From a virus (Duplodnaviria > Heunggongvirae > Uroviricota > Caudoviricetes), in IMG/VR virus record IMGVR_UViG_2579778670_000004: a stretch of DNA of 44,004 bases. The stretch is one strand, 5' to 3'. Of the stretch, positions 30,270 to 41,688 are shown one piece after another. Within the stretch, counting starts at the first letter, position 1, and every line of letters starts with the position of its first letter. The position numbers and the translations under genes were made by a program. A model generated the notes under the pieces. The model was not told where the DNA came from. It did no database searches and saw nothing but the letters and a program-made list of their open reading frames with translations.

Positions 30270-30511
30270 CACCACCAGCGACGCCAATCATCTGGTGGTG
30301 AGCTGTGCAGGGTTGGCGTAACCGGCTAAGTGAACCCGGCGCTTCCACAGAAGCCCCCACACAGCCCACCATAATGCGAATGTGGCCGTGCCTAACACAT
30401 AAAAAAACCGCTAACGCGGCTATGCGTCACTTAGATATCCGGGACGCCAATCCCGGCAACCGATTTTGCGGCTGCGCGGAAACTATAGCCCCGGACTTTT
30501 TCTAAGTCAAT

Positions 30512-31687: not shown

Positions 31688-32098
31688 TCACGCCCCTTTC
31701 TTTGCTATCGGAGTGATGGAACTCAGCAGCAGGCGGCAGCGACCAGGCGCGCCAATGCGCTGCCCGGTTATCTTGTCGTAAGTTTCATGCGGTGAGGCAC
31801 ACCAGGTTGTCGCTGTTTCGTGGAGTTTCACTTGCCGCTCACCATTTCTGCGAATCGCGATCCCGGTGTGCGTTTTGCCCTTACGTTTCACTGCTGGCGC
31901 TGCGGCTACGGATGCCTGACGGGCAGGCTTAGCAGGGGTTGAAAAATTGCCTGCTTTAGGTCTTGGCACAAAAACCGCGCGAGTGCGCGCACGTGGCCCG
32001 ACGTTCATATTCCACAAAATGACGTCGAGATAGTTTTTACCGTCGTCTATGTGTCCTTTGTCCGACGGGTACTCTAATTTGCCTGGAGTGGTGGTCAT
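31688..32098 (-). CDS. Hypothetical phage protein
   Basis: 136-aa ORF downstream of the helicase gene. Confidence 0.35.
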   Translation of the reverse strand: MTTTPGKLEYPSDKGHIDDGKNYLDVILWNMNVGPRARTRAVFVPRPKAGNFSTPAKPARQASVAAAPAVKRKGKTHTGIAIRRNGERQVKLHETATTWCASPHETYDKITGQRIGAPGRCRLLLSSITPIAKKGA

Positions 32099-32136
32099 TG
32101 GTCTTTCCTCGGTTATTTCACGCTGGTCAGGCGTGG

Positions 32137-34297: not shown

Positions 34298-34518
34298 ATG
34301 CCCAAAGCCTCTGAGAGAACGCGACAGCCAGCCTCATAGGCAGCGCCAGAGAGATTTTGCTCACGCAGTTTCGCTTTTTCTTCTTCGTACTTTTCCCATA
34401 CAGAACGTGCAGCTGCGACGCGGCCATCGAATATGGGGCGGATCTCTGCAACATGTGCCGGGCGTCCATTCAGGTGCCAGCCGTTACGCCAGGTAATGCG
34501 GTCAATATGTCTTAACAT
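34294..34518 (-). CDS. Hypothetical phage protein
   Basis: 74-aa ORF between the CII-position gene and the replication initiator. Confidence 0.35.
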   Translation of the reverse strand: MLRHIDRITWRNGWHLNGRPAHVAEIRPIFDGRVAAARSVWEKYEEEKAKLREQNLSGAAYEAGCRVLSEALGI

Positions 34519-34557
34519 CGGTCTTTCCTCGGTATAAGTTAAACGCTGGTCAGGCGC

Positions 34558-35092: not shown

Positions 35093-35323
35093 TTAAGCTG
35101 CTTCCGTTTTAGGCAAGCTGTCATCTGGGTTTGGGTAAAGATCCGGTCTAAGATCATGAGGGGTCACGCGCCATTCAAGAGCTTCAGATGTGCGCAAAAC
35201 CTCTTCACCGGGAACCCGTCCTTTGAACCAGAGGCTTACCGTTTGTGGTTTTTTCCCTAATCGCCGCCCTAACTCGGATTGACTCATTACGGAAAGAATT
35301 TTGTCTTGCAGTTGTTTATCCAT
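35093..35323 (-). CDS. Cro-like HTH regulator (YdaS-like)
   Basis: Start set at the ATG with AAGGAG Shine-Dalgarno (MDKQLQDKILSVMSQSELGRRLG...), 76 aa; divergent from the repressor gene. Confidence 0.5.
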   Translation of the reverse strand: MDKQLQDKILSVMSQSELGRRLGKKPQTVSLWFKGRVPGEEVLRTSEALEWRVTPHDLRPDLYPNPDDSLPKTEAA

Positions 35324-35348: not shown

Positions 35349-35387
35349 ATTACAAACAATAACTGTAATTACAAATTATATTTGCAA
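35349..35387. promoter_or_regulatory. Operator region between divergent cro-like and repressor genes
   Basis: Inverted repeats ATTACA-N9-TGTAAT (35349..35369) and TTACAAAT-TAT-ATTTGCAA (35369..35387). Confidence 0.45.
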
Positions 35388-35406
35388 TGCTCCCTACAAT
35401 TAAACC

Positions 35407-35835
35407 TTGTATCCTTACGGTATGAACACAAAAACGAAAAACATGGCTTTTGCTAGCCGACTACAACGGATTCTAAAAGACTTAGGCTGGTCTCAATCTG
35501 AGTTAGCTCGCCATATTGGGGTTACGGCTCAATCAGTTCAGGCATGGTGTAATGGGGTAACTCCAAGAAAAGATAAATTAGACAAGCTAGCAAAAGTGAC
35601 CGGATACCCTGTTCATTTTTTCTTCATGAATGAAGGGGAATATTTGGATGAATCCACACTACACCCGGGTAATTACAATCAAGAACTAACCCCGCAAGAA
35701 CAGGCTCTACTGCAACTATTCAGAGGACTGCCTGAGAGCGAAAAAAATAAATTAATCAATGAGCTAAAAGAAAAAAGAGAGCACTTCGATCTACTGCTAA
35801 AAGAACTACTTGAAGCCAAAAACCAGACAAAATAG
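35407..35835 (+). CDS. CI-like prophage repressor (XRE-family HTH, no S24 peptidase domain)
   Basis: 142-aa ORF; N-terminal HTH (LGWSQSELARHIGVTAQSVQAW); C-terminal short coiled-coil segment only. Confidence 0.6.
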   Translation: MYPYGMNTKTKNMAFASRLQRILKDLGWSQSELARHIGVTAQSVQAWCNGVTPRKDKLDKLAKVTGYPVHFFFMNEGEYLDESTLHPGNYNQELTPQEQALLQLFRGLPESEKNKLINELKEKREHFDLLLKELLEAKNQTK

Positions 35836-35953
35836 TTCAGTTCAAATTTCCAGGCCAGCCGCTGCTGGCATGCAACTTTCCCCTAACACAAAAACACCTT
35901 TACACAGTGAATATTTTTTTGCCCCTCACTACAAATTATTTTTTAAAAACACA

Positions 35954-35982
35954 TTGACCATTACAAATACAAATTGTAAAGT
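35954..35982 (+). promoter_or_regulatory. Sigma70-like promoter with embedded operator palindrome (early-left promoter candidate)
   Basis: TTGACC, 17-bp spacer, TAAAGT; spacer contains TTACAAATACAAATTGTAA, related to the operator half-sites at 35369..35387. Confidence 0.4.
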
Positions 35983-36845
35983 CACTTTCATCAACAACGC
36001 TTACCCAGCGGCAGTTGTTCAGAAACACGTTCTGACAGCCGGAAAGACGGCACCAAATTTTGCGCGTCGGCGCCAACACGGTGACAGAGGGAAAGACTTC
36101 ACCGGCATATGGCACATGTGTCGAAGCGGTCTGGATGGAAGCGGAGCCTTAACGCGTTGTCTCCATAGCAGGTAGCCGGAATGTGCAAGCCACAGCCAGG
36201 TATGAGCGATTGATTCACCATCAAGGCGATACGGTGTGACCACCAGGGAAGAGTCCTGGCTACAACACGAGAGCGCACTTCATCGACTCAACTTTGAGCT
36301 TTGTCGTTAAATTTTGAAATGGCGGAGTGCGCTCCCGGTTGTGGTGAACAGGTGTTTAACGGGAACTCCCTGCCCGTTACCCGGTTCGATTCCGGGCGCC
36401 CATCATCAATTTGCTGTGTTTAGTCTTTGCCCAGTCCGCACGATGGGCCATTTTTTCACACAGCCAGGTTTTATCGCTGTGCCTGAGTCCCCAACAGGAG
36501 AGGCCAAACCCGCAGCGTGACACCAGGGAAAGACCGGAGGAAGTACCACGCCTGACCAGCGTTGACCATGAGCCTGACCAGCTCAAAACAGGAAAGACCA
36601 GCCCGGGCCTGACCAGCCCTGTACGGTCGTAATGGAAACATAACGACGCCGGAAACGTAACCGGCACCCTTTAGATAGCAAAAGACCCGCACAAGGCGGG
36701 CCAGTTACCCCGAACGGCGACCAAACCATTCGGATTTATCACAAGTGACCAAACTTGTGATGAGGAAAGACCAACGACACTGACGCTATGGAAGCTGATC
36801 AATATTCGCTGATCGGCTCTGAGTATACATTACCAAGGAGTCGCT

Positions 36846-37166
36846 ATGGAAGCGCGCACCATCCCAGTAACACTCTTTATTCATTATGCAACTTCAACTT
36901 TCAGCCACGAAAAGCTGCTTGTTGCGACTGTTGATATGTCAAAAAATTTTCCAGACAGGTACATCCTTCTGGAAAGCCGCGAAATTGAAATTACCGTTAA
37001 CCAGCCCGAGCCAATCGACATCATCGGTTTACAGGTCGAGCAACTGCGTGAACAAAAACAGAAAACAGTCGCCGACGCCCAACAGCGTATTGCTGCTATC
37101 GATGACAAAATCCAGCAGTTACTTTGCATCGAATACACGCCAGATACCGATGAGCTCCCCTACTAA
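36846..37166 (+). CDS. Hypothetical early-left protein
   Basis: 106-aa ORF with AAGGAG Shine-Dalgarno. Confidence 0.4.
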   Translation: MEARTIPVTLFIHYATSTFSHEKLLVATVDMSKNFPDRYILLESREIEITVNQPEPIDIIGLQVEQLREQKQKTVADAQQRIAAIDDKIQQLLCIEYTPDTDELPY

Positions 37167-37196
37167 AAACCACTGACCTGTAATGAGGAAAGACCA

Positions 37197-38151
37197 ATGA
37201 CCATTTTTAACGGCTTGTTAGAAGCGAAAAAAGGCGCGCTCAAAAACGGCGCGATCCCGGCGCTGGCCATCGCCATCGCCGCCCCTAACAAAAAAGTTGC
37301 CGAGAACATCATCATCGGCAAATTGTGGGAAGCCTACCCTGACCACGGCGACAACTATTTCAAACCTAAAATCTGGGAAGATGCCCCGGGCCAACCGCGC
37401 CCAGGCGTCGGTGAGTTTGATGAGACGTTTGCCACAGAACACAGTTTTGATGGCGAAAAATGGGTAGTTAACACTCCTGTTGATTCAGATTGCAGTTCAG
37501 CAGATATCTCACAGGTTAGCGACCTGATGAAACTGCCGGCTCGTGAACGATTCGCCGCCGTTCTGCTGTTCAGCCACGACGCCAACGAAGTCGACAGTGA
37601 ATTGCTTGTGCAGACGCGTGAATACCTGGAGATGCTCGATAACAGTGATACTGACAGTGAGGATGAGGTTGACGCGTTTAACCGCATCGTTCTTGATGCC
37701 ATGGTGGCGTGTAAGCCCATCGAGTACATGCATATTGCTGGATTGAATAATCTGGTACATGCAATTTTGGCAAGTTGCGATACCCAGGAACAAAACCCGA
37801 CCAGTTGGACTATCTCCAAATTTATAAAAAAATGGGTAGAGAATCCCGGTAAACGAGATGAAATGCTGCCGGAGGTAAAACCAGAAACAGCATCCGCACG
37901 TCCTTACAAACAGACTCACGCCACTCTGGATCGTGAAATTGCCTGCGCCCTGTTACCTGTTGCCCCGGAAAAAATCACCCCCAGCATCCTGAAAGCGGCA
38001 GACGAAATAATCAGTCAGGACAGGGAAGATTTTAAACGCTGGTCAATGGCCTTGCGCACAACGGATCAGATCCTTGCCTATGACCGCGCATCAGTATTCG
38101 GTGTTATTCAGAGCGCCCCCGCAAAAGACACGTACCACTTCCCACAATCCC
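37197..38151 (+). pseudogene. 5' part (codons 1-318) of a roughly 738-codon gene disrupted by IS911
   Basis: Reading frame runs into the IS left end at 38152; after removing the IS and one CCC target copy the frame continues into 39405..40666 without a stop. Confidence 0.6.
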
Positions 38152-38181
38152 TGAAGTGGTCAACAAAAACTGGCCACCGAG

Positions 38182-39329
<1,148 letters not shown>

Positions 39330-39404
39330 TATGGCACCTGTGTTGTTCTGAGGTGAGCATATCACCTCTGTTCAGGTGGCCAAATTCAGTAAACCACTTC
39401 ACCC

Positions 39405-41463: not shown

Positions 41464-41688
41464 ATGCTGCGATGGCAACCGGGAGCAACTCTGCTCTCCG
41501 CATTTGATATCAAAATTGGTCGACTGTCGGCCAGCGTCAGGAAACAGACTTTGACCGAGTCTGATATTGCCCGTGCCTGCCAGAAGGCAGATGACGCAAT
41601 AAGCTACATAATGAGGAAAGACCATGAAAAGCGATCACGACATAATCACCAGAGAAGAAATGGTCGAGCTGACGGGAAGCCCACTTAA
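41464..41688 (+). CDS. Hypothetical small protein
   Basis: ATG with GGAGGA Shine-Dalgarno (shorter than the 41434 track ORF); overlaps the next gene by about 65 bp, so one of the two may be shorter than drawn. Confidence 0.3.
   Translation: MLRWQPGATLLSAFDIKIGRLSASVRKQTLTESDIARACQKADDAISYIMRKDHEKRSRHNHQRRNGRADGKPT

Follow-up and report, generated by a model that had tools for sequence, protein, structure and literature searches.

The early-left leader of a Rac-like Escherichia coli prophage appears to be built from RNA modules, including a covarying pseudoknotted core, an RprA-like end and two recurrent hairpins

The DNA analysed here, 44,004 nucleotides of a caudoviricete virus (IMG/VR record IMGVR_UViG_2579778670_000004; the window), is an Escherichia coli prophage integrated beside the Leu-Cys-Gly tRNA cluster. 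An original prediction made from its letters had drawn attention to some 850 bp from about position 35,990 that seemed to hold no gene and many copies of a 9-mer, GGAAAGACC. Taken together, and with slightly better than even confidence in the explanation as a whole, our data speak for a lambdoid prophage of the Rac-like (YdaS/YdaT-type) kind in which this stretch, transcribed but not translated, leads a repressor-controlled early-left operon and is assembled from RNA modules. Its first ~470 nt (module A, ~35989-36456) have the make-up of a promoter-proximal small-RNA unit with an RprA-like end, and the remainder (module B, 36459-36845) that of an array of two small hairpins. The 9-mer is best read from its contexts as the core common to a hairpin-loop motif and a Shine-Dalgarno-plus-spacer cassette, two structurally unrelated settings. 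The region is therefore not the single repeat array that had been proposed, since its first 470 nt form a small-RNA unit with an intrinsic terminator and the motif has two unrelated structural contexts.

That a long untranslated leader lies behind an early-left promoter had been proposed correctly. In the immunity region, a cro-like gene of the YdaS type (35093-35323, minus strand) is accompanied by a gene of the ydaT family and by a divergent gene for a helix-turn-helix repressor (35443-35835, plus strand). Two elements follow:

35954..35982, plus strand: early-left (PL-type) promoter TTGACC-17-TAAAGT, sigma-70-like, found by promoter scan 3' of the repressor gene.
35960-35979, plus strand: operator-like ATTACAAATACAAATTGTAA in the promoter spacer, with repeats in common with 35349-35388.

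Because operator-like copies of ATTACAAAnnnnAnnTGTAA are shared between the promoter spacer (one copy) and the cro/repressor intergenic region (two similar copies), the promoter is repressor-controlled. Transcription is predicted to start at ~35989, and homology to related phages (~72-75% identity) starts at 35989 as well, while the promoter and operator sequences themselves vary among these phages. Of 5426 complete E. coli genomes, 476 carry 35850-37250, most of them with an identity of at least 99%. The leader has folding z-scores of -1.87 and -2.89. The claim that it lacks a credible open reading frame (ORF) over ~850 bp held up, as the NCBI Prokaryotic Genome Annotation Pipeline (PGAP) places no coding sequence between 35836 and 36845 and the leader ORFs of relatives vary in length and frame. 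That the region nevertheless encodes conserved small proteins, an outcome that the original prediction had itself raised, is very improbable: relatives carry 24-47-aa ORFs starting at GGAAAGACCAATG, but these start codons are missing in the window, the ORFs are conserved neither in length nor in frame, PGAP annotates nothing here, and the length of the structured core described below varies by non-multiples of three.

The design of module A is plainest in its simplest relatives of ~175 nt, which consist of 5' hairpins (including two of the form TGACA + G[GAAAGA]C), a block shared with the small RNA RprA, and an RprA-like intrinsic terminator. In L274, L254, L244 and other loci (L numbers denote single loci), GGGAAAGACCGCAAC is joined straight to AATTGCTGTGTG; at that junction the window has ~300 extra nt and L002 ~260. 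The ~300 nt between the 5' hairpins and the RprA block are thus an insert, with three components: a core RNA, a module closed by a stem and a tRNA-like piece that has decayed. The parts of module A are:

35992..36034, plus strand: two 5' stem-loops (CAACAACGC..GCAGTTGTT; CAGAA-ACACG-TTCTG), nearly invariant in relatives and present in the computed fold.
36038..36051, plus strand: hairpin H1a, GCCG[GAAAGA]CGGC after CTGACA, corresponding to the near-copy of the 9-mer at 36041; compensatory changes GCCCG/CGGGC, GTCCG/CGGGC and GTCTG/CAGGC.
36087..36100, plus strand: hairpin H1b, GAGG[GAAAGA]CTTC after GGTGACA, corresponding to the near-copy at 36090; relatives have TGCGG/CTGCA or GCGG/CCGC.
36102..36266, plus strand: core structured RNA of 165 nt with helices P1, P2, P4, P5 (forming a pseudoknot with P4) and P6, defined by covariation and covariance model R1.
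36263..36341, plus strand: module closed by a long stem, CAACACGAGAGCGCACT ... AGTGCGCTCCCGGTTG, then GTTGTGG; present in the minimum-free-energy fold.
36342..36405, plus strand: candidate degenerate tRNA-like piece with T-arm-like CCCGGTTCGATTCCGGG (36380-36396); weak tRNA-Sec hit of 19 bits.
36411..36456, plus strand: RprA-like 3' module, TTGCTGTGTTTAGTCTT, terminator GCCCAGTCCGCACGATGGGC and U-tract, from Rfam, pairwise alignment and a terminator scan.

The core was first seen as 70-77% identity to unannotated DNA of unrelated phages, and its covariation as a structured RNA is strong. Across 43 non-redundant sequences, 94.8% of the cells of the proposed structure pair, compared with 27-45% for slid partners, and there are 94 double-change cells, compared with 24.6 in shuffles (a number reached in 0 of 500). 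Compensatory changes occur in each of P1 (A-U 21, G-C 21), P2, P4, P5 and P6, and as P4 and P5 cross, the pseudoknot is supported. A second pseudoknot, PK1 (GGCACA/UGUGCA; P1 loop with AUGUGC), is unproven, with both sides invariant and two sequences breaking it. Model R1 finds a single copy in the window (140 bits, E 9e-44) and 37 further copies in independent loci. The unpaired nucleotides are extremely conserved, an invariant 19-mer, GGTAGCCGGAATGTGCAAG, is part of the core, and the P6 loop in the window reads GAAGAGT. The idea of a structured leader RNA is thus upheld by covariation, although the main element at 36102-36266 and the RprA-like end had both gone unnoticed. In the suggested comparison with Rfam, Rfam 15 gives no family for the core at the gathering threshold and none covering it at E<=10, with only Zeta-pan (36036-36137, 17 bits) clipping its 5' end.

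The distribution of the core is wide within the enterobacteria and their phages. In the Uetakevirus phages SPN1S, Tyrion and PAT1 it lies between the terminase and portal genes, in opposite orientation and with its own promoter, and it also occurs in Klebsiella phage SopranoGao and in the P1-like phages D6 and SJ46. The 19-mer is found in at least 120 IMG/VR contigs and in 24 species-representative genomes, all of Enterobacterales except two doubtful metagenome bins. Of 5426 E. coli genomes 665 carry the core, 196 times on P1-like plasmids, and always unannotated. In about 40% of core loci a tRNA gene is the near neighbour, tRNA-Arg(UCU) on the downstream side or tRNA-Met(CAU) on the upstream side. 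The first ORFs 3' of the core range from Ban helicase through DUF2829-like proteins to unknowns, a variety which argues against involvement of any single pathway and led us to reject a riboswitch. A resemblance to ops/JUMPstart (GGTAGC) was rejected on inspection, with no Rfam hit, as was a hammerhead-like reading of CUGA..GAAA, in which stem II is missing; a likeness to the sarcin-ricin loop (GACCGGAG) was judged coincidental. Like the large phage-associated RNAs ROOL and GOLLD, the core is a conserved pseudoknotted phage RNA that often adjoins tRNA genes, but it is much smaller, confined to Enterobacterales and without an Rfam match to either. In three loci (L088, L032, L045) a hairpin and an rrn-type boxA (GCTCTTTAACAA) follow immediately 3' of the core, which hints that these untranslated units may recruit NusB/NusE-type antitermination.

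Its place between the early-left promoter and a terminator 165 nt further downstream, in a phage without recognisable N, raises the question of whether the core could be a cis-acting, protein-independent antiterminator like the put RNA of HK022. We think this rather improbable. The conserved unpaired nucleotides would fit contact with a conserved host machine, and the core stands near promoters in several unrelated phages. However, it has no similarity in sequence or structure to HK022 putL/putR (blastn-short and model R1 find nothing between the HK022 immunity region and the core), measures 165 nt compared with ~70 nt, and is present in a single copy in the window, with none in the rightward operon, instead of one per early operon. 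Moreover, core-less relatives retain the same terminator and downstream genes, some loci add the rrn-type boxA after the core, and the Uetakevirus units end at a terminator facing opposed genes, where antitermination makes no sense and read-through would harm.

The insert has two further pieces. The stem-closed design recurs with compensatory stems in SPN1S, D6, SopranoGao and L009. Its position differs: it lies 5' of the core in some Uetakevirus and Klebsiella phages (L006, L008, L009) and 3' of it in the window, and modules therefore appear to be shuffled between units. The tRNA-like piece is largely absent in L002-type relatives and recurs in L232, where its acceptor-like helix is intact; at 36342-36405 no tRNA is recognised by ARAGORN, and Rfam gives only the 19-bit tRNA-Sec match. 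A long-range helix, GTTGTGG(TG)...(CA)CCACAAC, encloses modules of 50-156 nt just 5' of the RprA-like seed in 27 of 112 contexts (L003, L008, L215, L232, L312 and others). Several of these modules carry T-arm-like GGTTCGATTCC hairpins, and in SPN1S the GTTGTGG runs into a real tRNA-Arg. Helix and hairpins together suggest processing by tRNA-maturation enzymes.

The 3' end of module A resembles RprA (RF00034), an Hfq-dependent small RNA of Enterobacteriaceae with rpoS, csgD, ricI, dgcM and hdeD among its targets, in several respects. Its TTGCTGTGTTTAGTCTT is identical to E. coli RprA at 16 of 17 positions in a pairwise alignment (RprA sequence from PMC5606850), and where the window reads AUUUGCUGUGUUUAGUCUUUGCCCAGUCCGCACGAUGGGCCAUUUUUU, E. 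coli RprA ends in AAUUGCUGUGUGUAGUCUUUGCCCAUCUCCCACGAUGGGCUUUUUUU. Both have the block UUGCUGUGU(G/U)UAGUCUUUGCCC right before a terminator of similar sequence, and the Rfam model aligns over its full length. A permissive Rfam scan matches 36348-36458 at 37.4 bits, and L002 and L096 at 50.2 and 48.8, where the gathering cut-off is 70; the unit thus has the conserved 3' block and a Rho-independent terminator, and a score under the family threshold. The terminator at 36429-36456 was found by scan, and its stems are compensatory in relatives. Unlike RprA, the unit is phage-borne behind an early promoter, and its 5' part is unrelated and modular, with a 300-nt insert. Two further comparisons are StxS, from PR'-tR' of Stx phages, and operon-embedded DicF, likewise small RNAs that arise from the start of a phage operon through an intrinsic terminator or processing; here the promoter is early-left and repressor-controlled, the sequence is different and the cargo is modular. 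StxS is said to act on rpoS, as RprA does.

A 16-mer of the RprA-like block, TGCTGTGTGTAGTCTT, is present in at least 120 viral contigs. A looser seed pattern gives 112 distinct contexts, 82 of which have a T5 run within 70 nt downstream. The block occurs in SfV, SfII, SfIV, phiNP, cdtI, mEp460, Stx2c phages and Rac-SA53, as well as in the e14 prophage of K-12, where it overlaps 'ymfH', and in none of these phages and prophages is it annotated as RNA. The e14 locus (L312; NC_000913.3 ~1201190-1201500, minus strand, seed at 1201255) is a core-less RprA-seed unit. A 35-nt RNA on the e14 seed and terminator ranked in the top two of the e14 small RNAs by abundance in RNA-seq of K-12 (PMC4398507). 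Pairing of the RprA-like seed with GGAAAGAC was considered and discarded, with only 6-7 bp and mismatches, and the window holds no convincing complement of the seed elsewhere.

Turning to the 9-mer, exact enumeration confirms that it exceeds chance: the 44 kb hold seven copies where 0.30 are expected, and none of 100 shuffles has seven or more. Five are on the plus strand, at 36527, 36591, 36764, 37187 and 41615, as had been listed apart from the first, given as 36526; two on the minus strand (32100-32108 and 34520-34528) had been missed. All seven lie on the transcribed strand of adjacent early genes, and none in the late region. Allowing one mismatch yields 22 copies (8.4 expected), which include the near-copies reported at 36041 and 36090; the third, at 36246, reads GGAAGAGTC and forms the loop of the hairpin that ends the core RNA.

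Two contexts stand out among 171 distinct contexts of GGAAAGAC in the window and the fetched relatives. In 47 it forms hairpins G[GAAAGA]C of at least 4 bp (H1), with 23 stem types and TGAC in front of 39 of the 47; the copies of this class in the window are 36038-36051 and 36087-36100, both with compensatory stem changes in relatives. In 41 others the context is GAGGAAAGACC N0-2 ATG. This longer motif has five copies in the window (0.03 expected), four of which are followed by N0-1 and the ATG of ORFs of 74-369 aa; they begin at 37185, 41613, 34530 (minus) and 32110 (minus), with starts at 37197, 41624, 34518 (minus) and 32098 (minus). Copies before start codons hence behave like start-associated sequences, as had been surmised. 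One of the genes behind them codes for an excisionase-like protein, two code for proteins without an assigned function, and another for a 738-aa protein whose reading frame is broken here by an insertion sequence. The motif is limited to this lineage, with 3-7 copies in each of 8 of the 131 loci fetched first. The copies at 36591 and 36764 have an ATG and a short ORF downstream in relatives, but not in the window.

The second hairpin, H2, has the form NNGC[CUGACCA]GCNN. The cluster of TGACCAG around 36553..36615 is present as claimed (36553, 36575 and 36610), and TGACCAG turns out to be the loop of H2, which in relatives often reads CUAACCA. Of the five exact occurrences of CCTGACCAGC, three belong to the leader, and the minus strand has the others, at 32122 and 34545. 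At least two further outer pairs, of five types, can form in 60 of 69 distinct contexts, compared with 2 of 69 after a shift of the 3' arm by three bases, and in 45 of the 69 a GGAAAGAC-like motif follows 8-30 nt after H2. On the minus strand, H2 comes directly after the stop codon both of the ydaT-like gene and of the DnaB-like gene, with 10-13 nt between it and GAGGAAAGACC-ATG. Because of this position, H2 hairpin, GAGGAAAGACC and ATG together look like an intercistronic cassette of this phage lineage, used in early genes of both early operons. The cassettes of the window are:

37185..37199, plus strand: GAGGAAAGACCAATG, putative ribosome-binding cassette for the large gene of the early-left operon (uninterrupted, 738 aa).
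41613..41626, plus strand: GAGGAAAGACCATG, putative ribosome-binding cassette of the excisionase-like gene (87 aa).
34516..34557, minus strand: putative intercistronic cassette after the ydaT-like gene, H2 GCGC[CUGACCA]GCGU, 13 nt, GAGGAAAGACCGATG (74-aa gene).
32096..32134, minus strand: putative intercistronic cassette after the DnaB-like gene, H2 CACGC[CUGACCA]GCGUG, 10 nt, GAGGAAAGACCAATG (136-aa gene).

One precedent may be the start-associated sequences of Cluster K mycobacteriophages, reportedly described by Pope and colleagues in 2011 as a motif upstream of some start codons, often with a conserved inverted repeat further upstream, and with the consensus GGGATAGGAGCCC. The likeness lies in an 11-nt motif a few bases 5' of the start codons of a subset of genes (in the general range of 0-8 nt, as with four of the window's five GAGGAAAGACC copies and, among relatives, 41 distinct contexts). 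It is analogy and not homology, as GAGGAAAGACC differs from that consensus, the host is another, the motif here belongs to early genes only, and the 9-mer is also a hairpin loop.

In module B the same two hairpins form what appears to be an array, in which H1 is sometimes reduced to bare GGAAAGACC; Rfam has no match for this array at the gathering threshold or at E<=10. Its elements are:

36527..36535, plus strand: GGAAAGACC copy following GTGACACCAG, able to form no more than a 4-bp hairpin that contains a bulged A; conserved in relatives.
36548..36562, plus strand: hairpin H2a, ACGC[CUGACCA]GCGU.
36569..36585, plus strand: hairpin H2b, UGAGC[CUGACCA]GCUCA.
36591..36599, plus strand: GGAAAGACC copy without a stem; relatives read GGAAAGACCAATG, starting a 24-38-aa ORF absent here.
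36605..36619, plus strand: hairpin H2c, GGGC[CUGACCA]GCCC, then UACGGUC, which could pair with the loop.
36648..36665, plus strand: hairpin GCCGG[AAACGUAA]CCGGC, where relatives have GCCGG[GAAAGA]CCGGC.
36684..36702, no strand assigned: GC-rich hairpin GACCCGCACAAGGCGGGCC, terminator-like on the minus strand, found by scan and compensatory in L096/L098.
36762..36772, plus strand: GAGGAAAGACC followed by AACG, where relatives have AATG and a 34-47-aa ORF.

On the minus strand of 36680-36790, the terminator-like hairpin with its U-run (36702-36684) is preceded by two stem-loops with UUUGGUC loops, and the corresponding site of L096 matches isrB weakly (30 bits, where the gathering score is 35). 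An antisense small RNA could be encoded here; no convincing promoter for it was found.

The position of H1 and H2 invites comparison with nut sites, and it is conceivable, if doubtful, that they are boxB-like hairpins which in both early operons load a phage antiterminator onto the polymerase and so carry it past the terminator at 36456 and those beyond. As in the nut sites of lambda, P22 and phi21, small sense-strand hairpins with GNRA-like or UMAC-like loops (H1 G[GAAAGA]C, H2 C[UGAC]C-A) and covarying stems lie 3' of early promoters in both early operons, two of them between PL and the terminator, and a strong terminator separates PL from the first gene in all relatives. In lambda the boxB loops are GAAAA and GAAGA, similar to GAAAGA in H1. 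For H2, whose loop is CUGACCA or CUAACCA, the match is the phi21 boxB hexaloop CUAACC (PMC12550061). Against this stands the lack of boxA (YGCTCTTWA, up to one mismatch) on the plus strand of 35990-36845, its window-wide count being that of chance. A six-frame scan of the early regions together with PHROGs and Pfam found no antiterminator and no arginine-rich small protein of the N type, although a very divergent N would escape. The cassettes of the rightward operon are at gene junctions right before start codons, not after cro, most copies being fused to ribosome-binding sites, and the many copies per operon are unlike nut sites. The original suggestion of a nut-like region is therefore supported as to the hairpins and not as to boxA or an N-like protein, and as HK022 put homology is missing too, nut-like describes a resemblance only.

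A different view, to which we give a small chance, about that of the put-like reading, is that the repeats are recombination linkers or scars: H2 plus GAGGAAAGACC would be the gene-junction sequence of the lineage, and the leader copies remnants after gene loss with no RNA function of their own. This would fit the ATG and short ORFs that follow the copies at 36591 and 36764 in relatives and not here, the differences in length and content of the array among relatives, and the confinement of GAGGAAAGACC to 8 of 131 loci. However, every copy is strand-specific, the H1 hairpins 5' of the terminator are conserved with compensatory changes, and the stems of H2 covary while its loop stays constant, which speaks for selection on an RNA hairpin. 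It is also most unlikely that the leader is a sponge for a host RNA-binding protein such as CsrA, whose targets present GGA in the loop of a hairpin, with a stem flanking the consensus ANGGA. Many hairpins do have GGA at the start of the loop, and by eye there are ~20 GGA in 860 nt, but this density is only ~1.5 times random and the loops do not fit the CsrA consensus.

The leader hairpins also resemble parts of the core. The P4 hairpin of model R1 (loop UUCACCA) gives weak matches to H2, P6 (loop GAAGAGA, preceded by GGUGUGAC) shares the design of H1 (loop GAAAGA, preceded by GGUGACA), and H2-UGACA-H1 are directly adjacent in relatives. For these reasons, hairpin pairs look like small versions of the 3' domain of the core, from which we infer common descent or a common partner. 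The near-invariant single-stranded nucleotides and at least one pseudoknot would suit a ribozyme or scaffold, or an RNA that binds a host machine. Tentatively, then, and with much less confidence than in the modular leader as such, the core may be a new functional class of structured RNA in enterobacterial phages (a ribozyme or processing scaffold, or a binder of a conserved host machine such as RNA polymerase, RNase P/E or a tRNA-related enzyme) that travels as mobile cargo in a large, unrecognised family of RprA-seed small RNAs; the GAAAGA and CUGACCA hairpins would then be its 3' domain in miniature and share its binding partner.

Together, these observations suggest a model for expression of the modular early-left leader. 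After derepression, many PL transcripts would stop at the 36429-36456 terminator. The terminated transcript would be the precursor of an Hfq-type small RNA with the RprA block, which would act on host RNAs. Its release would be analogous to that of StxS or of the short processed form of RprA, reportedly liberated by RNase E (PMC6202311). Read-through transcripts would take the hairpin array into the early-left genes and express them, the H1 and H2 hairpins would be RNA-level sites for stability, processing or protein binding, and GAGGAAAGACC would provide a strong common ribosome-binding site of early genes. Leakiness is plausible here because the terminator of the window is weaker than that of relatives; those with 6-bp GC terminator stems seem to require some antitermination device.

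Several points weigh against this model and the modular reading behind it. The RprA match is under the Rfam gathering score (37-50 versus 70 bits), the seed of the window has one substitution (GUUUAG for GUGUAG), and its terminator has 5 bp with a mismatch and CA ahead of the U-tract. The strand stated for the e14 reads is opposite to that of the predicted small RNA (PMC4398507). An efficient terminator would demand an antitermination device, and a search for boxA, an N-like protein and put homology found none; nor did the promoter scan reveal a second promoter between 36459 and 36845. Finally, one factor may be common to both settings of the 9-mer and escape a two-context reading. Each ingredient has a known analogue in phage small RNAs, boxB-like hairpins and start-associated sequences. 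The core family, the widespread RprA-seed phage small RNAs with modular 5' cargo and the hairpin-plus-ribosome-binding cassette nonetheless appear undescribed in Rfam 15, RefSeq/GenBank annotations and the searchable literature. Full-text searches on the core 19-mer, the e14 unit and 'RprA-like' returned no paper describing these RNAs, although a catalogue of 10,006 candidate viral RNA motifs (PMC10690425), which was not compared, may hold the core.

Some features of the surroundings deserve mention. A 45-nt block, CTGATCGGCTCTGAGTATACATnAnCAAGGAGTCGCTATGGAAGCGC (36808-36855), is almost invariant in relatives that are otherwise ~72% identical; it spans the ribosome-binding site and start of the 106-aa first gene and may be a translational operator. 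The product of this gene has no Pfam match, and its AlphaFold model (predicted local distance difference test score 50) is unusable. The large early-left gene is interrupted by a transposase ORF (38182-39000, minus strand; window ~38150-39400), leaving 369 aa here compared with 738 aa in strain SK1144. On the minus strand at 30291-30488, Rfam matches above the gathering score to C4 antisense RNA, its a1/b1 targets and isrK adjoin an ORF6N-domain gene, in what has the appearance of a P1/P7 immI-type antirepressor control module within a lambdoid prophage. The 'Stenotrophomonas' phages BUCT708/709 (L002, OM816834/5) are 72% identical over this enterobacterial early region and have its immunity layout of the YdaS/YdaT type as well; their stated host looks doubtful.

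If our reading is right, about one in eight complete E. coli genomes and many phages of Salmonella, Klebsiella, Citrobacter and Enterobacter carry a conserved pseudoknotted RNA that is unnamed in databases and would be a target for work on structure and function. The hairpin-plus-ribosome-binding cassette of the early genes would offer a simple system for asking what start-associated sequences do. A block identical to one of RprA, the host's stress and biofilm regulator, would end small-RNA units in many temperate phages, among them K-12 e14, Shigella serotype-converting and Stx2c phages, suggesting either that phages draw on the regulon of RprA or that the host gene rprA has a relative among phages.

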